Source: Squalus acanthias | Taxonomy: Eukaryota | Assembly: GCA_030390025.1 (NCBI GenBank) | Contig: CM059432.1 | Location: 86,678,001-86,742,000 of the forward strand | DNA length: 64,000 nt | Direction: 5' to 3' | In this document: positions 3,248-62,310 of the stretch, piece after piece | How positions within the stretch are numbered: the first letter of the stretch is position 1 | Layout of the letters: every line of letters begins with the position of its first letter | Notes under the pieces: model-generated | The model's input: only the letters and a program-made list of their open reading frames with translations | Told to the model about the DNA's origin: nothing | The model's database searches: none | Translations under genes and position numbers: made by a program

Positions 3248-3879
3248 CTGTTCACAAAGTAAAGAGATTCACCAGTCCTTGACTTAGTTTAATGGCTAAG
3301 CAGCAATTTTTTGCATATTTGTCTCAAGATCTTTCAAATCAAGACTTCCCTGATTTTAGATTAATGTACTGAACTGGTTTTGAAGTTGATGTATCCCATT
3401 TGGAAACACCAAATTAACATGTGTTCTGAAGCTACCTTTTCTCCATTCTCTTCTGCTGTAGCAATTCATGCTGGAGTACAGTTCTAAACGTGATATTAGC
3501 CACCTGGTACCTCATTCATAGTCTTCATATGCAAGTATGGACAGCAAGTATTGGCGGGCTATTCAATCACAGGGAGTCACACTCGGGCCCCATAATCCTA
3601 TTCTCACTCAACATGCTCACCAGATAGCAATAAGGAGGAGGAACCCAGCAGTGACACTGAGGCTAATTAATGCAGCACACTGTCACATGGCTGAAACTCA
3701 AATAAATTTAACATGGTCCAAATTGTGCAGATTCCCAATTTTGACTGTCACAGGAACATGTGTCAAAGGCTCAATAACAACTGGGAGGATATCTGAGCCT
3801 TTCATGGCACCAGGACTGGGGAGAGAGAGAGCTGTTCCGTTGGGACGGACTACACCTGAACCATGCTGGGACCAGAGTT

Positions 3880-6615
3880 CTAGCGAATCGAATAACTAGG
3901 GAGGTAGATAGGGCTTTAAACTAAATAAGGCGGGGGGGAAGGTCCCGGTGGGGAGGGTCCCGGTGGGGAGAAATCTAGAATGCTAAAAAGAAAAGACAAG
4001 GAAGCAGTGCAGGAAAGTGATTGGGGTAAGGATAACCAGATTGTGTCAGGAAGGGTCAGAGCGTACAAACAAAAGAGTGCACGAACAAATAGGGTCCGGG
4101 TAAAAAAAAATGGTAAGACAAATAGGGCCATAGTGCAAAAAAATGTTAAGATGTCTAAAAATGTTAAAAAGACAAATCTAAAGGCACTGTATCTGAATGC
4201 ACGAAGCATTCATAATAAGGTAGATGAATTAACAGCGCAAATAGATGAAAACGGATCCGATATAATTGCGATTACGGAGACATGGCTGCAGGGTGACCAA
4301 GGCTGGGAGCTGAATATCCAAGGGTATTCGATATTTAGGAAGGACAGGCAAAAAGGAAAAGGAGGTGGGTGGCATTGTTAGTAAAGGATGAAATCAGAGC
4401 AATAGTGAGAAAGGATATTGGCTCAGAAAATCAAGATGTAGAATCAGTCTGGGTGGAGCTAAGAAACACCAAGGGGCAGAAAACATTGATGGGAGTTGTC
4501 TATAGGCCTCCAAACAGTAGTGGTAATGTAGGGGACGGCATCAAACAGGAAATTAGAGATGCATGTAACAAGGGTACTACAGTAATCATGGGTGACTTTA
4601 ATCTACATATAGACTGGCCAAACCAAATTAGCAATAATACTGTGGAGGATGAATTCCTGGAGTGTATACGAGATGGTTTTTTAGACCAGTACGTTGAGAA
4701 GCCAACTAGGGAACAGGCTTTCCTAGATTGGGTATTGTGCAATGAGAAGGGGTTAATTAATAATCTTGTTGTGCGGGGTCCTTTCGGGAAGAGTGACCAT
4801 AACATGTAGGAATTCTTCATTAAGATGGAAAGTGAAGTAGTCCAATCTGAAACTAGGGTCCTAAATCTAAACAAAGGAAACTACGAAGGTATGAGGAGTG
4901 AGTTGGCTACGATAGATTGGGGAGCTTCATTAAAAGGCATGAAAGTGGATAGGCAATGGCTAACATTTAAGGAACGAATGCATGAATTGCAACAGTTATA
5001 CATTCCTTTCTGGCGCAAAAACACAAAAGAAAAACGGCCCAACCATGGCTAACAAAAGAAATTAAGGATAGTATTAGATCCAAAGAGGAGTCATATAAAG
5101 TTGCCAGAAAAAGTAGCAAGCCTGAGGACTGGGAGCAGTTTAAAGTTCAGCAAAAAAGGACCAAGAGATTGATTAAGAGGGGAAAAATAGAGTATGAGAG
5201 TAAACTTGCAAGGAACATAAAAGTGGACTGTAAAAGCTTCAACAAGTATGTAAAAAGAAAAAGATTAGTGAAGACAAATGTAGGTCCTTTACAGTCAGAA
5301 ACGGGAGAATTTATAATGGGGAACAAGGAAATGGCAGAGCAATTAAACAAATACTTTGGTTCTGTCTTCACGGAAGAGGACACAAATAACTTCCCAGAAA
5401 TGCGAGGGAACCAAGGGTCTAGTGAGAAGGAGGAATTAAAGGAAATTAGTATTAGTAAAAAAATAGTGCTAGAGAAATTAATGGGACTGAAAGCTGATAA
5501 ATCCCCAGGGCCTGATAGTCTGCATCCCAGAGTACTAAAAGAGGTAGCCATGGAAATAGTGGATGTATTGGTTGTTATCTTCCAAAATTCTATAGATTAT
5601 GGAACAGTTCCTGCAGATTGGAGGGTGGCAAACGTAACCCCACTATTTAAAAAAGGAGGGAGAGAGAAAACAGGGAACTACAGACCGGTTAGCCTAACAT
5701 CAGTAGTAGGGAAAATGCTAGAGTCTATTATAAAGGATGGGATAACAGGACACTTCGAAAATATCAACGGAGTTAGACAAAGTCAACATGGATTTATGAA
5801 AGGGAAATCGTGTTTGACAAACCTACTGGAGTTTTTTGAGGATGTAACTGGTAGAATAGATAAGGGAGAACCAGTGGATGTGGTGTATTTGGATTTTCAG
5901 AAGGCCTTTGATAAAGTCCCACATAAGAGGTTAGTGTGCAAAATTAAAGCACATGGGATTGGGGGTAATATACTGGCATGGATTGAAAATTGGTTAACAG
6001 ACAGGAAACAGAGAGTAGGAATAAATGGGTCTTTTTCGGGGGGGCAGGCAGGTGACTAGTGGGGTACCGCAGGGATCAGTGCTTGGGCCCCAGCTATTCA
6101 CAATATATATCAATGATTTGGATAAGGGAACCAAATGCAATATTTCCAAGTTTGCTGACGACACGAAACTAGGTGGGATTGTGAGTTGTGAGGAGGATGC
6201 AAAGAGGCTTCAAGGCGATTTAGACAAGTTGAGTGAGTGGGCAAATATATGGCAGATGCAGTATAATGTGGATAAATATGAAGTTATCCACTTCGGTAGG
6301 AAAAACAGAAAGGCAGAGTATTATTTAAATGGTGATAGATTGGGAAATGTTGATGTACAAAGGGGCCTTGGTGTGAGAAATTTCTTCACTCAGAGGGTGG
6401 TGAACCTGTGGAATTCTCTACCACAGAAGGCTGTGGAGGCCAAGTCACTGAATATATTTAAGGAGATAGATAGATTTCTAGACGCAAAAGGCGTCAAGGG
6501 GTATGGAGAGAGCGGGAATTTGGTATTGAGATAGAGGATCAGCCATGATCATATTGAATGGCAGAGCAGGCTCGAAGGGCCGAATGGCCTATTCCTGCTC
6601 CTATTTTTCTATGTG
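3880..6615 (+). mobile_element. CR1 LINE, long copy with APE endonuclease and RT, frameshifted, internal 3' deletion
   Basis: LYLNARS, IAITETWL, MGDFN, SDH (endonuclease); NYRPVSLTS, DFQKAFDKV, GVPQGSVLGP, FADD (RT); jump at about 6372 into the 3' end. Confidence 0.95.
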
Positions 6616-6691
6616 CATTTTAGCCTCTAATTGCCTGGGTAGAAAGGGTGCCAATCCCAGCTCTCCTCAACATTAGCTGCCTATAGAGAAA

Positions 6692-7640
6692 CGAGTGTAA
6701 TGTATCCAAGTTTGCGGACGATACAAAGCTAGGTGGAAAAGTAAGCTGTGAGGAGGACACAAAGAGCCTGAAAAGGGATATAGACAGGTTAAGTGAGTGG
6801 GCAATAAGGTGGCAGATGGAGTATAATGTGGGGAAATGTGAGGTTATTCACTTTGGTAGGAAGAATAGAAAAACAGAATATTTTTTTAAATGGTGAGAAA
6901 CTATTAAATGTTGGTGTTCAGAGAGATTTAGGTGTCCTCGTGCAAGAAACACAGAGAGTTAGCATGCAGGTACAGCAAGCAATTAGGAAGGCAAATTGCA
7001 TTTTGGCCTTTATTGCAAGGGGGTTGGAGTACAAAAGTAAGGAAGTCTTACTACAATTGTACAGGGCTTTGGTGAGACCACACCTGGAGTACTGTGCACA
7101 GTTTTGGTCTCCTTATCTGAGGAAGGATATATTTGCCTTAGAGGCAGTGCAACGAAGATTCACTAGCTTGATTCCTGGAATGAGAGGGTTGTCCTATGAG
7201 GAGAGAATGAGTAGATTGGGTCTATACTCTCTGGAGCGTAGAAGAATGAGAGGTGATCTCATTGAAACATAAGATTCTGAGGGGGATTGACAGGGTAGAT
7301 GCTGAGAAGTTGTTTCACCTGGCTGGAGAGTCTAGAACTAGGGGGCAGTCTCAGGATAAGGGGTCGGCCATTTAAGATTGAGATGAGGAGGAATTTCTTC
7401 ACTCAGGAGGGTTGCGAATCTTTGGAATTCTCTACCCCAAAGGGCTGTGGATGCTGAGTCGTTGAGTATATTCAAGGCTGAGATAGATAGATTTTTGGAC
7501 TCATGGGGAATCAAGGCATATGGGTATAGGGCGAGAAAGTGGAGTTGAGGTTGAATATCAGCCATGATCTTATTGAATGGCAGAGCAGTCTCAAGGGGCC
7601 ATATGGCCTACTCCTGCTCCTAATTCTTATGTTATGTTCC
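6692..7640 (+). mobile_element. CR1 LINE 3' fragment
   Basis: FADDTKL through RPHLEYCAQFWSP to the 3' UTR and ttcttatg tail. Confidence 0.92.
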
Positions 7641-24994: not shown

Positions 24995-25920
24995 ATAGAC
25001 TCGTAGAACCATAAAAGTTTGCAGCACAGAAGGAGGTCATTCAGCCCATTGTGTCTGTGCCGGCCAAAAAAGAGCTATCCTGCCTAATCCCGCTTTCCAG
25101 CTCCTGTAGATAACGGCACTTCAAGTGCATATCCAAGTACTTTTTAAATGTGATAAGAGTTTCTGCCTCTACCACCCTTTCAGGCAGTGAGTTCCAGACC
25201 CCCACCATCCTCTGGGTGAAAAAATGTCTTTTCAACTCCCCTCTAATCCTTCTACCAATTACTTTACATCTATGCCCCCTGGTTATTGACCTCTCTGCTA
25301 AGGGAAATAGGTCCTTCCTATCCACTCTATCTAGGCCCAACATAATTTTATAAACCTCAATTAAGTCTCCCCTCAGCCTCCTCTGTTCCAAAGAAAACAA
25401 CCCCAGCCTATCCAATCTTTCCTCATAACTAAAATTCACCAGTCCTGGCAACATCCTCATAAATCTCCTCTGTACCCTCTCTAATGCAATCACATCTTTC
25501 CTGTAATGTGATGACCAGAACTGTATGCAGTAGTCTAGCTATGGCCTAACTAGTGTTTTATACAGTTCAAGCACAACCTCCCTGCACTTATATTCTATGC
25601 CTCGGCTAATAAAGGGAAGTATCCCCCGTATGCCTTCTTAACCACCTTATCTACCTGTCCTGCTACCTTCAGGGATCTGTGGACATATACTCCAAGGTCC
25701 CTCTGTTCCTCTATATTTCTCAGTATCCTACCATTTACTGTGTATTCCCTTGCCTTGTTAGCCCTCTCCAAATGCACTTCTCCGGATTGAATTCCATTTG
25801 CCACTTTTTTGTCCATCTGACTAGTCCATTGATATCTTCCTGCAGTCTGCAGCTTTCTTCTTCATTATCAACCACAGGGCCAATTTTTGTAACATCTGCA
25901 AACTTCTTAATCATGCCCCC
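24995..25920 (-). mobile_element. CR1 3' fragment
   Basis: ALERVQRRF..RRLRGDLIEVYKI..FFTQRMVGVWNSLP. Confidence 0.9.
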
Positions 25921-26380
25921 TATTTATTGATACGTATACCCGTGCAAATTTATTTTAATATTCACTCTAGTCTAGGTTAAATACTGTAGTTATTTAATGA
26001 TTCATCAGCATTACTGGCCAATATGAAAGGTTAATGATATCGATGGCATATTTTGTTGTACAGTTATACCTATTTTGATGGACCTTTATTGTTATGACAG
26101 AGTGATAGTGTGCTATTTAAAAAAACTCTAAGATGAATGTGAACAGGACAGACCAGGAAGTATACACAAAATTGGCTGAAGAAATCTAACATTATACCAA
26201 AATCTCATGGAATAAATGGCACTGGCTCATTTAGTTGAGATACAGTGAAATTTGTAAATTAGAGACACCTAAGGAACTTGCATCAGGTGTCCTTTTTTCC
26301 AAAATGGTCATTGCATGTGCAGTAAACTGGATGAGCCAAATATCCTGGGATTGGCTGTATCGCCTGCAGCGTTCCTTCCA

Positions 26381-27650
26381 TGTCAACATGGATTTATGAA
26401 AGGGAAATCCTGTTTAACAAACCTATTGGAGTTCTTTGAGGATGTAACCAGTGGAGTAGACAAAGGGGAACCGGTAGATGTGGTGTATATGGATTTTCAG
26501 AAGGCCTTCGATAAGGTCCCACACAAGAGGTTGGTGAACAAAATTAGGGCACATGGAATTGGGGGTAATATACTAGCATGGATTGAGAATTGGTTAACAG
26601 ACAGAAAACAAAGAGTAGGGATAAACGGGTCTTTTCAGGATGGCAGGCTGTGACTAGTGGGGTACCGCAAGGATCGGTGCTTGGGCCCCAGCTATTCACA
26701 ATCTGTATCAATGATTTGGATGAGGGGACTAAATGTAACATTTCAAAATTTGCTGATGATACAAAGCTAGGTGGCAGTGTCAGTTGTGAAGAGGCTGTGA
26801 AGAGGCTTCAAGGGGATCTCGACAGGCTCAGTGAGTGGGCGAGAACATGGCAGGTGGAATATAATGTGGATAAATATGAAGTTATCTTCTTTGGTAGAAA
26901 AAACAGAAAGGCAGAGTATTTCCTAAATGGTGAAAGACTGGGGAATGCAGATGCTCAAAGGGACCTGGGTGTCCTTGTACATGAGTCACTGAAAGTGAAT
27001 GTGCAGGTGCAGCAAGCCATTAGGAAGGCAAATGGTATGCTGGCCTTCATTACAAGATGATTTGAGTACAGGAGTAAAGAAGTCTTACTCCAATTATATA
27101 GGGCCTTGGTGAGACCACACCTGGAGTACTGTGTACAATTTTGGTCTCCTTACCTAAGGAAGGATATACTTGCCATAGAGGGAGTGCAATGAAGGTTCAC
27201 GAGATTGATTCCTGGGATGGTGGGACTGTCGTATGAGAAGAGATTGAGTAAACTAGGCCTGTATTCTCTTGAATTCAGAAGAATGAGAGGGGATCTCATT
27301 GAAGCATACAAAATTATTACAGGGCTTGATAGGGTGGATGCTGGGAGAATGTTTCCCTTGGCTGAGGAGTCTAGAACCAGGGGCCACAGCCTCAAGGGTA
27401 GGCCATTCAGGACTGAGATGAGAAGAAATTTCTTCACACAGAGGGTGGTGAATCTTTGGAATTCTCTACCCCAAAGGAGGCTCAGTCATTGGGTATATTC
27501 AAAACAGAAGTCGATAGATTTCTGACTAGTAAGGGCATCAAGGGATATGGTGATAGGGCCGGTGAATGGAGTTGAGGCAGAAGGTCAGCCATGATCTCAT
27601 CGAAGGGCCGAATGGCCTACTCCTACTCCTATTTCTTATGTTCTTATTTT
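26381..27650 (+). mobile_element. CR1 LINE RT and 3' end
   Basis: QHGFMKGKSCLTNLLEFF, DFQKAFDKV, GVPQGSVLGP, FADD; stops and frameshifts. Confidence 0.93.
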
Positions 27651-39074: not shown

Positions 39075-40554
39075 AAATCATAGAATGGTTACAGCATGGA
39101 AGGCGGCCATTCGGCCTGTCGAGCCCGTCCTGACTCTCTGTAAGAGCACTTCAGCTAGTCCCACTCCCCCACCCTTTCCCCGTAGCACTGCAAAATTTTT
39201 TCCTTCAGGTACTTATCCAACTCCCTTTTGAAAATCGTGATTGAGTCTGCCTCCACCACCCTTTCAGGCACTGCATTCCAGATCCTTGAGTTTTTCCTCA
39301 TGTCGCCTTTGGTTCTTCTGCCATTCACCTTAAATCTGTGTCCTCTGGTTCTCGACCCTTCTGCCAATGGGAACAGTTTCTCTCTATGTATGCTGTCCAG
39401 ACCCCTCATGATTTTGAACACCTCTATCAAATCTCCTCTCAATCTTCTCTGCTCTAAGGAGAACAACCCCAGCTTCTCCAGTCTATCCACACAACTGAAG
39501 TCCCTCATCCCTGGAATCATTCTCGTAAATCTTTTCTGCACCCTCTCTAAGGCCTTCACATCCTTCCTAAAGTGCGGTGCCCAGAATTGGACACAATACT
39601 CCAGTTGAGGCCGAACCAGTGTTTTATACCTGTTCATCATAATTTCCACATTTTTGTACTCTATACCTCTATTCATGAAGCCCAGGATCCCATAAGCTTT
39701 TTTAACTGCTTTCTCAACCTGCCCTGCCACCTCCAACGATTTGTGCACATATACCCCTAGGTCTCTCTGTTCATGCACCCACTTTAGGATTGTACGCCCT
39801 TTAGGATTGTACCCTTTAGTTTATATTTCCTCTCTTCATTCTTTCTACCAAAATGCATCACTTCGCACTTTTCTGCGTTAAATTTCATCTGCCACGTGTC
39901 CGCCCATTCCACCAGCCTGTCTATGTCTTCTTGCAGTCTATCACTATCCTCCTCACTGTTCACTATACTTCCAAGTTTAGTGTCATCTGCAAATTTTGAA
40001 ATTGTGCCCTGTACACCCACATCCAAGTCATTAATATATATCAAGAAAAGCAGTGGTGCTTGAACCGACCCTTGAACACCACTGTATACCTTCCTCCTGT
40101 CTGAAAAACAACCGTTCACCACTACTCTCTGTTTCCTGTCACTTAGCCAATTTTGTATCCATGCTGACACTGTCCCTTTTATTCCAAGGGCTTCAACTTT
40201 GCTGGCAAGCCTATTATGTGGCACTTTGTCGAACGCCTTTTGGAAATCCATGTGCACCATGTCAACCACATTGTCCTAATCAACCCTCTCTGTTACCTCA
40301 TCAAAAAACTCGATCAAGTTGGTTAAACATGATTTGACTTTAACAAATCCGTGCTGGCTTTCCTTAATTAATCCACACTTGTCCAAGTGACTGTTAATTT
40401 TTTCCCCTGATTATTGTTTCTAAAAGCTTCCCCACTACCGAGGTTAAACTGACTGGCCTGTAGTTGCTGGGTTTATCTTTACACCCTTTTTTGAACAAGG
40501 GTGTAACATTTGCAATTCTCCAGTCCTCTGGCACCACCCCCGTTTCTAAGGAGG
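39075..40554 (-). mobile_element. CR1 LINE RT and 3' end, about 23 nt from a stau2 donor site
   Basis: [31 protein letters not shown]; homology ends at about 40554. Confidence 0.93.
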
Positions 40555-40577: not shown

Positions 40578-40737
40578 CTGGATTATTATTCATAATTGTT
40601 TTTGGTGGCCGTGGGGATGGTTTTGGGAGAGCAGTCTCATTCAATGCTTTGGCTGCAGCAGCATGTTGAGCCTTTTTAATACTGCTTCCTTCTGCTTCCC
40701 AGGTTTGATCTCCAAGGGTCAACTGTACAGTGAAGAT
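40578..40737 (-). CDS. stau2: Staufen homolog 2, coding exon (rest of dsRBD1 and linker), 160 nt, phase 0 to 1
   Basis: cttttcatgcag|ATC...CCAG|GTACTG; encodes IFTVQLTLGDQTWEAEGSSIKKAQHAAAAKALNETALPKPSPRPPKTIMNNNP(G); continues the previous exon in frame. Confidence 0.96.
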
Positions 40738-47172: not shown

Positions 47173-47574
47173 TAAAACCAAGGGGCAATTCTCATGTTAA
47201 AATAGCAGACAGAGGAATTTGAAACAAACGTGCTAAGCATTCATATGATAATATCGCTCAGTGTAATTTCCAGGTAATACAGGAAACTTTCGTTTATCCG
47301 GCATCGACGGGACCGGCGTGGTGCCGGTTTATCGAAAGTACCGGATAACGGAGAGTTATATCTACCGAGGCTATTTTTAACATAAAAAAATCAAGAAATG
47401 TGCAGTATACAGTATTTGGGTACTCACCTACAGAATGTTGTGTTAAATGGATAGTGGAAGATGCTTGATTAAGTACAGTACTGCCAGTTGAGGGTAATCC
47501 ATAACTCTTTAATTACTTAACAGTAAAACAAAACTTATAAACGACTGTCTACAGTACTGTAGTTGACTGTACAC

Positions 47575-49347
47575 TTATTCCGAGTCATCTGGTTCATCAG
47601 AAATATCCGTATCCGTGCCAGCTGGGTCATCAGGATCACGCAGTTCCACCGATGCCACAGATTCTTCAGGCACTTCCACTGCTGCGACTCTTTTGGAAGC
47701 TTTCTTAAACATGTTGCGGATGTCGGTTTGCTTAGTGGACTCTTGCCTTTTCTGTAGAAAGGTGGAATGCAGAATATGGAGTTGCATAACTTCTTGTGCA
47801 GTGTAGCAATTCTGCCTTTCAGCAAATTTGAGGATTGTAGAAAATCCTTCTGCAGCTTTAGCCCAAGAAATCTTCTCTTCTTCAGAAATCTCATCCTCTT
47901 CACTTTCCATCTCGCTTTCCTTTTCTTTCTTTGGATTCAAAACATTCTCAATTATTTCATCATCACTTAGCATATGCACAACACCAACTTCTCTATCTGC
48001 ATCAACCCACTGCTCGATATCACTTTCACTGAGGTGACGTAGAGGGTTTGCTGCGCCTGCATTTTTCACCATTCCAGCCATTTCCATTATTGTACTCTTC
48101 TTGGGACGAACACTGAACCCATGAAATTCCTCCTCTGAAGAAGAACCTTCAGCAAACATTACAGAAGGCCACAATTTGCGCCAGGCTTGCCTCAGAGTGT
48201 GACCTTTCACCAATTTCCAGGAACATGCAACATTATAGATGGCATCTTTAATATTGTATTCCTTCTGCAATTCTTGAATATTGTCATCTTGGCTTATCAG
48301 TTTACGTAGGAAGTCTTTCTTGTAATGACACTTCAGATTTTGGATAACGCCCTGGTCCATGGGTTGGATGAGAGAAGTTACATTTGGTGGCAAATAAATG
48401 GTGAAAATATTTCCCGAAACCAACTGGGATTCATGCGGATGGGCTCTGCAATTATCAAGCAATAAAATGCATTTGCTATCTTCAGGTTTCCCTATTTTGC
48501 GGAAATGTTCCCTCCTAGATGGACCAAAAATATGATGGAACCAATCGGAGAAGATTTCCTTATCCATCCAAGCATTTTTTTGAGCTTTGTACTCAACAGG
48601 TAAGTGCCTCACATTTTTAAATGCACGGGGATTTTTATACTTCCCGATAACAAGAAGTTTAACCCGGTGTGATCCAGCAGTGTTCGCACATGTTAGCACG
48701 GTTACACAATCTTTATTTTTCTTGCAACCTGAAGTATTAGCCTCACTAGCCCCAGCAAGCGTTGATTCTGGCAAAAACCTCCAAAACAAGCCAGTTTCAT
48801 CGGCATTGTATATCTGTGCTGGCGACAAATCATGTTGCTGCACAATCCGATTGAAATAATCGCAGTATTCTTCTGCGGCTTCGTGATCAGCTGATTTCTT
48901 CTCCCTGGAAATATCGAGTCGTCGTATCCCGTGCCGTAACTTGAAGCACGTTAGCCATCCATCGGAGAAAGCACACTTGTCAGTGAGCTCCATCCTTACA
49001 TAGAAATCCTTCGCTTTCTCGATTAGCATGGGTCCGGAAATTGGAACACCCTCTGAACGCTTAAGAGAAAACCATTCACAAAGCACGGTATCCAGCTCTT
49101 CAAGCTTAGGCTTACGAAGCGTACGCTGTTTCTCTACACTCTTGCATGTCTCCGAGCTTGAATAAAACTTGAGCAGCTTATCCTTCTGCGATTTGATGTC
49201 GTAGATTGTTGACGAACCGATTTTGAATTCATTCATAATGTTGATACGCTTCTCTCCCCTTTCTAGTCGTTGGCATATCTCGATTTTCTGTTTTAAAGTT
49301 AAGACCACTCTCTTCCTTTTGCTTGGACCAGCTTTTGGGAATTCCAT
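47575..49347 (-). CDS. Tigger/Jerky/CENP-B-like DDD transposase, 590 aa from first ATG
   Basis: N-terminal HTH ([14 protein letters not shown]), CENP-B-type HTH (WF...GPMLIEKA...SDGWL..FK.RHG), catalytic [19 protein letters not shown] with 32 residues between the 2nd and 3rd Asp, acidic C-terminal tail; no stops or frameshifts. Confidence 0.95.
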
Positions 49348-49386
49348 AATGCAAGATGGAGGAGATAATTGCCGATGAAGATGGAA

Positions 49387-49795
49387 AGACACACAGAACA
49401 ATGGTGGCTAGGAAGAGACTACCAGCAGCGTGGCAGACACACAGTAAAATGGTGTATCAGAAGAGACTACAGTACCAGCAGCGTGGCAGACACACAGCAA
49501 AATGGTGTATCAGAAGAGACTACAGTACCAGCAGCGTGGGAGACACACAGCAAAATGGTGTATCAGAAGAGACTACAGTACCAGCAGCGTGGCAGACACA
49601 CAGTAAAATGGTGTATCAGAAGAGACTACAGTACCAGCAGCGTGGGAGACACACAGCAAAATGGTGTATCAGAAGAGACTACAGTACCAGCAGCGTGGGA
49701 GACACACAGCAAAATGGTGGATCAGAAGAGACTACCAGCATCGTGGGAGACACCCAGCAAAATGGCCGATCCGAAGAGACTCCAGGCAGCGCGGG
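49387..49795. repeat. 53-bp tandem minisatellite inside the Tigger 5' leader
   Basis: Unit starts (agacac) at 49387, 49435, 49488, 49541, 49594, 49647, 49700, 49748: periods 48,53,53,53,53,53,48. Confidence 0.93.
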
Positions 49796-49921
49796 AGAAT
49801 CAAATCCTGCTACTGCAATGTTTCGGACTTGCAACAGCGCCAGGAGGCCGAGTAGTGGCACTTTTGAAAAGTACCCCTACTGACTAAATCGGCGTTCGCG
49901 GACTCGGACTCGGACTCGGGA

Positions 49922-50030
49922 TCGGCAACATTGCCGGTTATTTGAGAGGAGTTTTCGGAGCACTTGGCGTTCGCGGAGACTCGACTGCGACTCGGCAACA
50001 TTGCCGGTTATTTGAGAGGAGTTTTCGGAG
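49922..50030. repeat. Subterminal 39-bp direct repeat pair in Tigger
   Basis: tcggcaacattgccggttatttgagaggagttttcggag at 49922-49960 and 49992-50030; contains TGCCGGTTA resembling the inner TIR motif TGCCGGATA. Confidence 0.88.
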
Positions 50031-51191
50031 GATGATTTTTGCCGGTTAAGCGAAAATTCCGGATATTTGGGTGCCGGATAAACGAAAGTTTCCTGTAATG
50101 GTTTATGAATATTTAGATAAAAATTACTGGAATCTTTCAACAAGCAAGCTTTACAGATACACAAATGGGACACATGGACATTCTTCCCATTATCAAAATT
50201 AGTACAATATTAGATAACAGAAAGTCACGGTAAAATCTAGTGAGGCATTTAAATTATTGACCAGATAAGTTACACCTTCTGGACACAGGTACAGAGATAT
50301 AAACAGTTTTTCAAAAGAATCCACTGAGGCTTTATCACTTCTGAGTTTGATGTTATCTCCTCCTATTATACACAGATGACAAACTGAAAACCATTATTTG
50401 TATGACACTTTAGGAAGGAGAGTCAGTGCAGTGTGTTGAGGGGATTGGGAATGCTCGTATTGAAATTGTTTAACGAAACAAAGTTGAGAGGAATCCTTGG
50501 GCACAATGAGCCTGATCAGAGGAAATCTTTCACCAAGTTGATAGAGAGTTTTAAAGCCAATTGAAGTTTAATACTCAAAGACAATGTTTAATTATTTGAA
50601 TTTGCATACAGTGACGGCAGGGCCATATTAAAGGAACTCAGAGGCTGATGAGAACGTGTCATTTATTAAATTTGGTTAAAATCAGTAAAATTTGAATCTG
50701 AAAAAATTGTATACAAGTGGACAAGTCATAACTTAAATGGCCACTGCTTTTTAGGGGAGATGGGGAGAATTAATTTAAATGTTTTCTACTAATTGATGTG
50801 CACTTAATTGAACTTAAGAGGAGGGAAAAACAACTGGAAATAAACTACTAGAAAAACACTATAACCATCCAAAGATCTATACATCCATCACAAAGTCAAG
50901 TATCTATTCACTGATAATGGTGCATTTAATTTGAGACATATCAGATCACACAGATAAAAGCGTGCCTTGCATTAATGTCCTTATTCATTTTACAAGACCA
51001 TCTAGAAGTCAAGATTATTTCATCTTCAATATTCAATTATTAGACAATGGCACCAAGATCACGATAACAGAATTATAAAAGGGGAAATCCTGGATTGAAT
51101 GAGTATTACTTTCTAAATCAATATGCAAAGAGAAGTAATGCTACAAAATTCTAATAAAAACTTTAAAAAAAAAATGCTATTCAACTATTAC

Positions 51192-51305
51192 CTTGGCATG
51201 GGCAGGCCCTCTTTCATTCAGAAGCTTGTACTGGGGCTGGATTCTGTTGAAACGGGCTAACTCATTCACCAGACACATTGGGGTTTTCTCTTTGGGGTTT
51301 GCCAT
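51192..51305 (-). CDS. stau2: Staufen homolog 2, first coding exon (start of dsRBD1)
   Basis: Encodes MANPKEKTPMCLVNELARFNRIQPQYKLLNERGPAHAK, closely matching the vertebrate STAU2 N-terminus as I recall it; donor AAG|GTAATA after 51192 (phase 0); candidate acceptors put the exon start at 51322 (ttgcag|) or 51311 (ttccag|). Confidence 0.96.
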
Positions 51306-52741
51306 GTTATCCTGGAAAGAAACTGCAACCAACACATTTAAGATAACATACCACGTAACAATGCCCAGCTTTGGAGAAAATAAATATTCACTTTGCAAAT
51401 AAAAAAATATGACTCACACTTCACATTGCTTTAACTTATTGCCTGTACAAGACCTTGGTTAGGCCCCATCTAGAATACAGTGTCCAGTTCTGATCCAGAA
51501 AATGACCATGAAAGCAGCTGGATTGTTGTAAAAACCTAACTGGTTCACTTATGAACTTCAGGGAAGGGGACCTGCCACCCCAGCAGGTCTGGCCTCCAGT
51601 TCCACACTATGTGGTTGACTCTTAATGCCCTCAGGATGGGCAATAAATATTTCTTTGGCTGTGTCGCCCACATCCCAAGAATAAATATTAAAAAAAAACT
51701 TTATATGTCAGTTAAATTATTTCAATTAACTGTAAATGCCAGAACCATCAATGCGACTTTAAAAAAGTAACAAAAAACACCATCAGATTCTCAGCGCTAA
51801 ACAATAAATCAAAATCCAGGTTATGAAAATAAATTGGAACCAGTAGCAAGGCTTTTTTGTCCCAAAATGGATGGTTTCATGTGCACGTTTTAAATGAGAT
51901 GGCACTGCGTCATCTCGCATGTAAATTTATCACTCCTCCCAATCCTAACATATGCATAAACTAGGATGATATCCCCACATTTTAACTAATGCCCCAGTTG
52001 TCAGAGTCAGAGATATTTCTAGTGGTACAGGTCGTACTTTAATCAGAGCTCTGTACATGCATACTTAAACGTGTTCACCAGCTTCTGACATTTGATGAAA
52101 TTTCTAACATGAGACAGCTGATAGAATAGTATGCTTTCTAATATTAAAATTTTACAAAGTCAGACCACCTAAATTCTTTTTAAAACTGCACGTTTTGATA
52201 TGGAAACATCGGCTCTGCAGTAGCTATAATTAAACAAGTGACATGTAGCACTTGAGCTTTAAAACAACCCTTCCTTTACTTTTCTATTTTCTACCCTCCT
52301 TACCTGAAGGCATTACCTCTTGCTGGGATACAGTTCCACAGTCAGCAGAAGCCATACCAAAGTGTACCAAAGTAGTTGCTCTTCACGTGTGAGCCTAGAT
52401 AGCAATTGTCAGTTGGTCATTCGTCTGCAGAGTTTTACACTGAAACCTGATTTTGTTCCCACTTGACATCCAAACACACTTTCCAGTTGGTGTCACTTAG
52501 TAATAATCAGGAGTGGGAACCTTGGCTGATTTGTTCCCCTTTCTAAACGAGGAGCAGTGAAACCAATTACAGAACTTTTAGGGACCTTCTAGTCTGTGCA
52601 ACTTAGTACCCTTCTCTGGGTGAGACTTAAAGGCAGTCTCACTATCGACACCAAACTGCTGATTTTTCAAGAATTTTTACATGATAGATACGAATAAGGA
52701 AGGCCATTGTTCCATCTTAGTTCAAGCACCATTTTAAAAAT

Positions 52742-60026: not shown

Positions 60027-62310
60027 ACCAACAACAACAATTTGTATCTATACCTTTAACGTAGTAAAACATTCCAAGGTGCTTCACAGGAGTATTGTAA
60101 GACAAAAATTTGACACCGAGCCACATAAGGAAAAATTAGCACAGATGACCAAAAGCTTGGTCAAAGAGGTAGGTTTTAAGGAGCGTCTTAAAGGAGGAAA
60201 GAGAGGTAGCGAGGCGGAGAGGTTTAGGCAGGGAATTCCAGAGCTTAAGGCCGAGGCAACTGAAGGCACAGCCACCAATGGTTGAGCGATTATAATCAGG
60301 GATGCTCAAGAGGTCAGAATTAGAGGAGCGCTGATATCTCGGGGGGGGTTGTGGGGCTGGAGGAGATTACAGAAAGAGGGAAGGGCGAGGCCATGGAGGG
60401 ATTTGAAAACAAGGATGAGAATTTTGAAAAATCGAGGCATTGCTTAACCAGGAGCCAATGTAGGTCAGCGAGCACAGGGGTGATGGGTGAACGGGACTTA
60501 AGAACATAAGAAATAGGAGCAGGAGTAGGCCATTTGGCCATTCAATAAGATCATGGCTGATCTTGTACCTCATCTCCACTTTCCTGCACTATCCCCATAT
60601 CCCTTGATTCCCTCAATATTCAAAAATCTATCGATCTCTGTCTTGAATATACTCAACGACTGAGCCTCCACAGCCCTCTGGAGTAGAGAATTCCAAAGAT
60701 TCACCACCCTCTGAGTGAAGAAATTTCTCCTCATCTCAGTCCTAAATGGCTGGCCCCTTATTCTGAGACTTGGTGCGAGTTAGGACATGGGCAGCAGAGT
60801 TTTGGATAACCTCAAGTTTACGTAGGGTAGAACGTGGGAGGCCAGGCAGGAGTGCGTTCGAATAGTCAAGTCTAGAGGTAACAAAGGCATGGATGAGGGT
60901 TTCAGCAGCGGATGAGCTGAGGCAGGGGTGGAAATGGGCGATGTTACGGAGGTGGAAATAGATGGTCTTAGTTATGCTGCGGATGTGTGGTCAGCAGCTC
61001 ATCTCAGGGTCAAATATGACACCAAGGTTGCAAACAGTGTGGTTCAGCCTCAGACAGATGATAGGGAGAGGGATGGAGTCGGTGGCTAGGTAACAGAGTT
61101 TGTGGCGGGGACCGAAAACAATGGCTTTGGTCTTCCCAATATTTAATTGGAGAAATTTTCTGCTCATCCAGTACATGGACAAGCAGTCTGACAATTTAGA
61201 GACTGGAGGGGTCGAGAGAAGTGGTGGTGAGGTAGAGCTGGGTGGCGTCAGTGTACATGTGGAAACTGACACTGTGTTTTCGAATGATGTCGCCGAGGGG
61301 CAGCATGTAGATGAGAAATAGGAGGGGGCCAAGGATGGATCCTTGGAGGACACCAGAGGTAACGATGTTGGAGCGAGAAGAAAAACCATTGCAGGTGATT
61401 CTCTGGCTATGATTAGATAAGAATGGAACCAGGCGAGTGCAGTCCCACCCAGCTGGACGACGGTGGAGAGGCGTTGGAGGAGGATGGAGTGGTCAACCAT
61501 GTCAAATGCTGCAGACAAGTCAAGAAGGACGAGGAGGGATAGTTTACCTTTGTCGCAGTCATAAAGGATGTCATTTGTGACTTTGATGAGAGCCGTTTCG
61601 GTACTGTGGCAAGGGCGGAAACCTGATTGGAGGGATTCAAACATGGAGTTCCGGGAAAGATGAGCACGGATTTGGGAGGCGACAACACATTCAACGACTT
61701 TGGAGAGGAAAGGGAGGTTGGAGATGTGGCGGTAGCTTGCAAGGGGTCAAGGTTTGGATTTTTGAGGAGAGGAGTGATGACGGCAGATTTGATGGAGAGG
61801 GGGACAGTACTCAAGGAGAGAGAGAACCGTTAACAATGTCAGCTAACATGGGAGCCAGAAAAGGAAGTTGGGTGGTCAGCAGTTTGGTGGGAATAGGGTC
61901 GAGGAAGCAGGAAGTGGGTCTCATGGACAAGAGGAGCGCGGAGAGGTCAAGAGGGGAGGGAGATTGGAGAGAAACTGGAGAAAGATGTGAGATCAGGGCT
62001 AGGGCAGGGGGGCACCTTAGAGGAAGTTTGGCTCGGTGGGCTATGGGAAGGATATGTGTTTGGGAGTTTACATGGAGGCAGAGATTAAGGGAGGATAGGA
62101 GGGTAGTGAACTCAGAGGAGAGAGAGCATGATGAATTGAGATGGAGGTTGAAATCACCGAGGATGAGAAATCGCTCGATGCAGAGGCTGAGGGAGGAAAG
62201 CAGTGAGGATATCTCGGTGAAAACATTCTTATGGTACTTGGGTGGGCGGTAGAGAATGAAAATTTTAAATGAGAGCTGAGGGGGTGGAATAAGATGAGAT
62301 GCTCAACGTG
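60027..62310 (-). mobile_element. L2 LINE with a nested CR1 3' fragment (about 60498-60770, minus)
   Basis: FESLQSGFRPCHSTETALIKVTND, LLDLSAAFDMVDH, LGDFNLH; (caa)n tail; CR1 3' UTR interrupts PITPVL motif region. Confidence 0.92.

Follow-up and report, generated by a model that had tools for sequence, protein, structure and literature searches.

A sense-oriented Tigger transposon in a stau2 intron of Squalus acanthias: a cryptic in-frame acceptor common to a young, high-copy family

The Tigger element found in an intron of stau2 is one of at least 860 recently amplified copies, was inserted in sense at a TA and is likely removed with its intron; the AG that lies in frame with its transposase would be a weak cryptic site common to the family, and no working exon trap. 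The locus is likely an intronic passenger with the raw material of an exon trap, of a known kind (transposase capture). A preliminary description had proposed that the stau2 donor could splice onto the transposase; the mechanism was plausible and has good precedents, the frame arithmetic was right and the acceptor did come from the family's own sequence, but the tests gave no support for its use at stau2. Positions refer to the window, i.e., the whole stretch of 64,000 nucleotides that was analysed; a vertical bar marks a splice junction.

Element and its parts, up to the end of the reading frame:
47280..50095, minus strand: full-length Tigger (pogo superfamily) DNA transposon, 2,816 bp; TA at 50096-50097 and at 47278-47279.
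50072..50095, minus strand: 5' terminal inverted repeat of 24 bp, without a mismatch to its 3' counterpart.
47280..47303, minus strand: 3' terminal inverted repeat.
49790..50071, minus strand: 5' region rich in CpG; a direct repeat of 48 nt lies in it at 70-nt spacing.
49420..49785, minus strand: array of 48/53-nt units, in tandem within the 5' untranslated region, CCATTTT in each unit.
49408..49419, minus strand: putative acceptor tctcttcctag|, a derived variant of the last array unit.
49348..49407, minus strand: AG-free, stop-free stretch of 60 nt (20-codon linker).
47575..49347, minus strand: transposase open reading frame, 590 aa, with CENP-B_N, HTH_Tnp_Tc5 and DDE_1.

Terminal inverted repeats, a TA target duplication and dispersed copies were all present, as expected of Tigger/pogo elements. 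The three domains were found in one reading frame, each above its curated cut-off, and the catalytic triad D183/D298/D331 (DD32D) falls in the pogo range of DD29-56D (Gao et al. 2020, PMC7386202). Domain set, triad (DD32D, as in JRK with DD32D/E), TA duplication and short terminal repeats resemble the JRK-related Tigger lineage (PMC7386202). The best transposase matches were 'jerky protein homolog' models of coelacanth, turtles, alligator and sharks (62-71%); in a FastTree tree (25 of 121 rows, midpoint root) the element grouped with whale shark and bamboo shark proteins (0.999), the link to the clade holding mammalian JRK having support of only 0.60. Judged by its sequence, the element is a Tigger family member near the JRK lineage; JRK is a single-copy gene, whereas the family of the stau2 element is mobile and high-copy. 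KRAB fusions have been formed by distant relatives (P0009, P0066), a point against the preferred reading.

The claim of an intact transposase held for the reading frame and the DD32D triad; elsewhere conserved residues were substituted (see below). The element lies on the minus strand within the host intron, in sense to stau2, as had been stated; the distance of 1.1 kb from the donor at 51192 was correct for the end of the element (1,094 nt), the AG itself being 1,784 nt away. CpG observed/expected was 1.4 in the 5' region of the element vs 0.24-0.29 in the flanking intron. Together with the CCATTTT motifs, which we take to be YY1-like cores, this CpG richness hints at a candidate internal promoter at 49790..50071, from which the element may formerly have been expressed; the case is weak, because any young element is expected to be CpG-high.

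Host exons:
51192..51322, minus strand: second coding exon of stau2, 131 nt long when acceptor 51322 is used; donor AAG|GTAATA, phase 0.
40580..40737, minus strand: next stau2 exon, normal partner of donor 51192; strong acceptor; dsrm positions 31-65.

The exon with donor 51192 belongs to STAU2 (95-100% identity over 40 aa among the 120 matches listed); it contains an internal Met at 51305, and an alternative AG gives a start at 51311. It had been taken for the stau2 start exon and proved to be the second coding one: 13.4 kb further upstream, barely beyond the window edge (G000:C8:86742709-86742910), is a coding exon (MAQVK...) that birds and amphibians have in conserved form; it finishes in phase 1 and joins acceptor 51322 in frame. 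An acceptor 9 nt 5' of the ATG in the MAQVK exon implies a further non-coding stau2 exon upstream of it; some 35 kb upstream, a stretch rich in CpG is a candidate, and only that, for the stau2 promoter. The intron from donor 51192 to the exon at 40737 measures 10,454 nt and harbours the Tigger.

The predicted product of 38 + 20 + 590 aa is correct if counted from the second Met only; since the MAQVK exon joins in frame at 51322, the predicted fusion would start at the MAQVK Met with 111 host residues and comprise 111 + 20 + 590 = 721 aa. Exon 51192..51322 encodes positions 1-29 of the 66-position dsRNA-binding motif (dsrm); positions 31-65 are in exon 40580..40737, which the fusion would skip. 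The host part joined to the transposase would therefore be an incomplete domain (dsrm 1-29 of 66 only).

The junction ctggtagtctcttcctag|CCACCATTG, with exon start 49407, was verified to be in phase 0 to the ATG at 49347, with 20 open codons between. Among the 29 AGs between 50200 and 49347 it is the sole in-frame, open one; the competing AG mentioned earlier was located at 49418, 11 nt upstream and out of frame. The AG at 49407 is part of the in-frame TAG stop that bounds the reading frame upstream, and any such stop would yield equal geometry. A phase-0 open AG within 99 nt was encountered at 60% of random positions (20,000 positions), at 7% if YAG and at least 12/17 pyrimidines were required; dinucleotide shuffles of the 150 nt 5' of ATG 49347 (n = 5,000) gave 48%, and 25% under the YAG/pyrimidine rule. 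An in-frame open AG is common by chance.

Acceptor strength was estimated with a home-made scorer, small and rough, built on 19 stau1/stau2 acceptors placed by protein alignment, 1-2 of these being ambiguous between tandem AGs. T-weighted model: 49407 scored -4.0, with 0/19 real sites lower (leave-one-out), and ranked about 239-241 of the 659 AGs in the intron, 41 of the 74 AGs closer to the donor outscoring it. C/T-symmetric model: 49407 came 88th among the 659, and 6/19 real sites scored no higher. Acceptor 40737, the true one, ranked 1 and 9 in the two models, in-sample. The AG-free run before 49407 is 9 nt (at least 13 in 19/19 real stau1/stau2 acceptors), and two branch-point-like motifs (-38 and -50) lie both upstream of the competing AG 49418. 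Pyrimidines amount to 12/17, the median of the real acceptors, and to 8/9 in the nearest positions, where none of the 19 is higher. Weak to middling is a fair reading of these scores for acceptor 49407. In short, the transposon supplies an acceptor in frame with the host donor and present in the family majority, yet its strength is weak to middling and its occurrence is within what chance would produce.

Exact phase 0, the open linker and a score that falls among those of real acceptors under the symmetric model speak for a leaky exon trap, in which a minority of stau2 transcripts, most likely in testis, splice to 49407 and give an unselected 721-aa (or 648-aa) fusion message ending at ATTAAA. 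Known captures have been driven by transposon-supplied acceptors (Cosby et al., bioRxiv 10.1101/2020.05.07.082677), and SAFB loss turns sense intronic Tiggers into gene traps, the splice sites being most raised in testis (PMC10901741). The linker-bearing protein was not found: neither the fusion nor the 20-aa linker appeared among the 120 transposase and 120 STAU2 matches listed or their cluster members, a result with almost no power and near-uninformative, as the collections are without this Tigger family and their best match to it is at most 71% identical. P0295, the top of 12 matches in the linker search, was rejected as a tandem-repeat artefact; none of the 12 holds the linker. Such leakage is judged unlikely.

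The family was surveyed in the genome. The 30-nt acceptor motif gave 599 exact matches (reversed control 0) and its degenerate form 860; all 150 scored protein matches to the transposase were 96-100% identical. From 60 loci examined, chosen as best matches to the stau2 copy, 3 duplicates were dropped; the acceptor was exact in 55 of the 57 distinct loci, the other 2 retaining an AG, and hence belongs to the family consensus, a question that had been left for checking. ORFs of at least 585 aa were retained in 24/30 full-length copies, which makes the open frame a sign of youth, not of domestication. Five core array units had been described as reading tctcttctgat; six were counted, and the AG of 49407 was indeed absent there. 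The last array unit carries the AG, the remaining seven units reading GAT at that position.

A sister subfamily that lacks the AG (82 exact genome matches) has 1-4 short array units and differs from the young majority at 32/1,200 ORF bases. It is older: private divergence was 0.86% in 21 copies (of 30 fetched loci, those with a near-complete 1,200-nt segment) vs 0.26% in 30 young copies; the family had thus spread widely without the AG. A search for older families with a more distant transposase (P0120) returned the same family. A hand count of the first 100 of the 860 listed matches gave 76 CTAG, 20 CGAT/TGAT/CAAT, 3 CGAG and 1 CTAA, which suggests that the AG arose stepwise, CGAT -> CGAG -> CTAG, each step improving an acceptor. 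Ordinary pyrimidine content for a real acceptor, and an AG that is in the family majority and arose in two improving steps, speak on their side against the preferred reading. Between the young and older subfamilies 6/60 nt of the linker differ, including another adjacent pair, so that two hits at the acceptor over the same interval are unremarkable; with 4/6 changed codons nonsynonymous, the linker is not evolving like protein.

If 30-50% of copies lie in introns, half of these in sense orientation, and phase-0 introns make up about 45% of all introns (assumed, unmeasured fractions), some 40-70 copies would share the stau2 geometry by chance. A wider scenario, to which we give little credence, would have germline trapping of host transcripts favour the spread of the subfamily, the AG being gained in two steps as the 5' array and the copy number grew, and a downstream donor limiting the trap in soma; dozens of sense copies would then lie in frame within introns, that in stau2 among them, giving a direct view of transposase capture at step two in a cartilaginous fish, and at least 27 copies that later acquired a better in-frame acceptor (CAG) by one CpG change would be the leading candidates.

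3' End of the element:
47508..47513, minus strand: ATTAAA, variant poly(A) signal, 61 nt past the stop; in 28/30 full-length copies.
47422..47430, minus strand: splice donor of consensus type, TAG|GTGAGT, with 47428 as the last exon base, 79 nt past ATTAAA.
47428..47515, minus strand: possible 88-nt cassette exon, predicted only; from a U-rich AG to the 47428 donor, opening with a phase-0 stop.

The ATTAAA was confirmed at the position described; no U/GU-rich downstream element was evident by eye after it. AG|GTRAGT occurs nowhere in the 10.45-kb intron but at the 47428 donor, which the preliminary description had not mentioned, and three times in all on the minus strand of the window. AG|GTGAGT was present in 50 of the 55 loci holding the region (60 examined) and GTGAGT was kept in 4 more; the donor is also present in both AG-less copies seen in full. 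Upstream of 49407, no strong internal donor that would make an intron of the element's own was found with the two donor patterns tried. Splicing at 49407 would probably define a 1,980-nt internal exon with its stop 147 nt before the junction; by the 50-55 nt rule for the distance between stop and junction, such a transcript is predicted to be a decay substrate. The downstream donor would therefore favour read-through and decay over a 3' trap.

The same donor, the sole AG|GTRAGT of the intron, would serve a different outcome, in which any disturbance of stau2 is a truncation and not a fusion, either through the 88-nt stop-containing cassette (47515-47428) or through an out-of-frame acceptor, e.g., the TACAG|G at 50092, a cryptic site formed by the 5' terminal inverted repeat and its flanking TA. 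Exon definition suits an 88-nt exon better than a 1.9-kb terminal one; with T-weighting, 47515 comes 16th and 50092 21st among the 659 AGs, and every alternative site tested meets a stop within 71 codons. In the symmetric model, however, 47515 drops to rank 160, and it has AAG at the junction. Truncation by these routes is regarded as quite improbable.

Private changes in 30 copies were 162 nonsynonymous vs 37 synonymous (pN/pS 1.15; shared changes, 0.5), a pattern by which the family is under constraint while mobile and drifts once inserted. The ORF of the stau2 copy shows 23 differences from the majority, being 1.3% from the family majority and 1.5% from the closest examined relative. It has 6 private single-base changes in codons, nonsynonymous in every case (p 0.25 under neutrality; 0.007 for an omega of 0.2). 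R74Q, Y90C, R214C and V275G alter columns occupied, in 120 homologues, by R (115), Y/F (118), R (117) and V (105); R74Q and R214C are CpG changes, common to one and two other copies, respectively. The altered residues fall in DNA-binding and catalytic parts alike, and the transposase of this copy may well be crippled.

A domesticated STAU2-transposase fusion gene under selection, a shark counterpart of CSB-PGBD3, is accordingly held to be very improbable. The 590-codon open frame, the intact triad and the perfect phase would suit it. Against it stand private changes that all alter amino acids, the substitutions at conserved residues, the mere 1.3-1.5% by which the copy differs from its family, a host part of half a domain and an acceptor no better than that of the family at large; no purifying selection was seen on the transposase of this copy, the numbers being small and from one genome. 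Young fusions may not yet display purifying selection, which weighs against the preferred reading. A search of the assembly for an empty-site allele or a second flank allele returned the locus itself and one weak 74-nt match. Flank strand skew, as a proxy for loss of sense copies, had no power: the skew in stau introns was weak and unstable and flank means were within noise.

CSB-PGBD3 is alike in having a full transposase ORF in sense in a host intron, with an in-frame acceptor 5' of the first Met and a poly(A) signal past the stop (Newman et al. 2008, PMC2268245); the passages of that paper on the element describe the acceptor and the poly(A) signal only. It is a piggyBac element, the present one a Tigger; its acceptor lies 7 nt before the Met, follows a long pyrimidine run and is perfectly conserved in five primates, whereas that of the stau2 Tigger is 60 nt from the Met, with an 8-nt tract and a competing AG. 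Its poly(A) signal is AATAAA, against ATTAAA followed by a consensus donor; its fusion mRNA is as abundant as the host mRNA, the stau2 fusion being a prediction from sequence; and the fusion, which includes 465 host residues, has been conserved for at least 43 My (PMC2268245), in contrast to half a host domain with no sign of constraint.

Host-gene insertion and a transposon acceptor 5' of the ORF correspond to step one of the three-step capture model of Cosby et al. (bioRxiv 10.1101/2020.05.07.082677), who found the acceptor in the family majority in 9/9 captures traced. Their fusions, in tetrapods and including KRAB-Tigger, differ in having RNA-seq support at all junctions, dN/dS < 1 where testable, and usually a whole regulatory domain such as KRAB as host partner, compared with half a dsrm in the stau2 exon; the survey is of tetrapods, and the word 'shark' does not occur in its main text (same source). 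Among the papers listed in the literature searches, none reported this Tigger family or a STAU2-transposase fusion; related shark elements may be included in the supplementary data of Gao et al. and of Cosby et al.

SAFB proteins keep sense intronic Tiggers intronic in human cells, and the sites so suppressed are used more in testis (Ilik et al. 2024, PMC10901741). The stau2 element resembles these Tiggers in being sense and intronic, with an A-rich ORF (32% A here vs >33% in Tigger1) and latent splice and poly(A) sites; the suppression was demonstrated for extinct human Tiggers in human cells (PMC10901741) and is carried over here by analogy.

The preferred reading, removal with the intron, would run as follows. 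The Tigger was inserted into the stau2 intron during a recent burst and would be transcribed within the stau2 pre-mRNA, then spliced out with its intron, donor 51192 presumably pairing with the strong acceptor 40737; SAFB-type repression of sense intronic Tiggers may extend from human cells to this case. A stray splice to 49407 would tend to pass the weak ATTAAA, take donor 47428 and, with the stop 147 nt before the exon junction, be degraded. An acceptor common to about 600 copies and the changes in conserved residues make it likelier that the element is spliced out than fused.

As it stands, the stau2 locus is an ordinary intronic insertion; if true, the fusion would bring cartilaginous fish, and a host gene whose product binds RNA, within the range of transposase capture, at an observably young stage. 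The more useful result is the family, with hundreds of near-identical Tiggers with and without the acceptor in one genome. These copies amount to a natural experiment, in which one could ask if splice sites evolve in transposons as a means of expression from host genes.

The Tigger copy in the stau2 intron is bounded like a giant internal exon, with an acceptor at its 5' side and a donor at its 3' side. The sequences considered were:

47422-47430: consensus splice donor in the Tigger 3' untranslated region.
49420-49785: 5' tandem array of the stau2 copy, compared with family copies L001-L030 and L075-L134.

The donor is common to the young and older Tigger subfamilies. At the opposite edge, the TA duplication and the first bases of the element together spell TACAG|G (50092-50097), so any Tigger copy inserted after a U-rich flank would acquire a cryptic edge acceptor. 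In the stau2 copy this acceptor ranks above the site put forward in the preliminary description (exon start 49407), and is out of frame. The array comprises 1–4 units of 48 nt each in the older subfamily and 3–12 units in the AG-bearing copies, those of the stau2 copy being 53 nt long; it appears to have enlarged along with the family. A frame stays open back to purine-rich AGs with 48-nt units, not with 53-nt units.

At 27 places in the genome assembly searched (G000), among them copies L003, L018, L095 and L098, CGG has become CAG by one CpG substitution, which gives the element another phase-0 acceptor, 24 nt upstream of the transposase ATG and preceded by a long pyrimidine stretch free of AG. 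Scores of this CAG acceptor were 3.6–5.3 (T-weighted model) and 2.5–4.4 (symmetric model) vs −4.0 and 0.8, respectively, for the 49407 site; the copies that carry it would be better candidates for capture than the stau2 copy.

The predicted products of two coelacanth gene models, P0250 and P0254, belong to a related Tigger family; a stretch of ca. 36 aa ahead of the transposase is common to both, and their N-termini differ, as if, in these models, distinct upstream exons had been spliced onto one acceptor.

A stau2 exon has two acceptors of its own, 11 nt apart:

51322: preserves the long N-terminal stau2 frame.
51311: scores far above 51322, but breaks this frame.

Via 51311 the protein would begin at the second Met. 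Residue spacing ahead of this Met is the same in bird and fish models, a hint of a conserved isoform switch.

Elsewhere in the window are fragmentary open reading frames that resemble reverse transcriptase and endonuclease pieces, presumably of CR1/L2-type retrotransposons:

3537-7272
25041-27525
39155-40260
60991-61644

A further family copy lies ca. 165 kb from that in stau2:

G000:C8:86893654-86894253, strand opposite to the stau2 copy: 262-aa open frame.

Over the first 200 aa, the scores of several dozen copies in G000 were identical; these copies have open frames of 605 aa, and divergence within the closest pairs is 0.6%. The data point to a very recent, possibly ongoing, Tigger burst.
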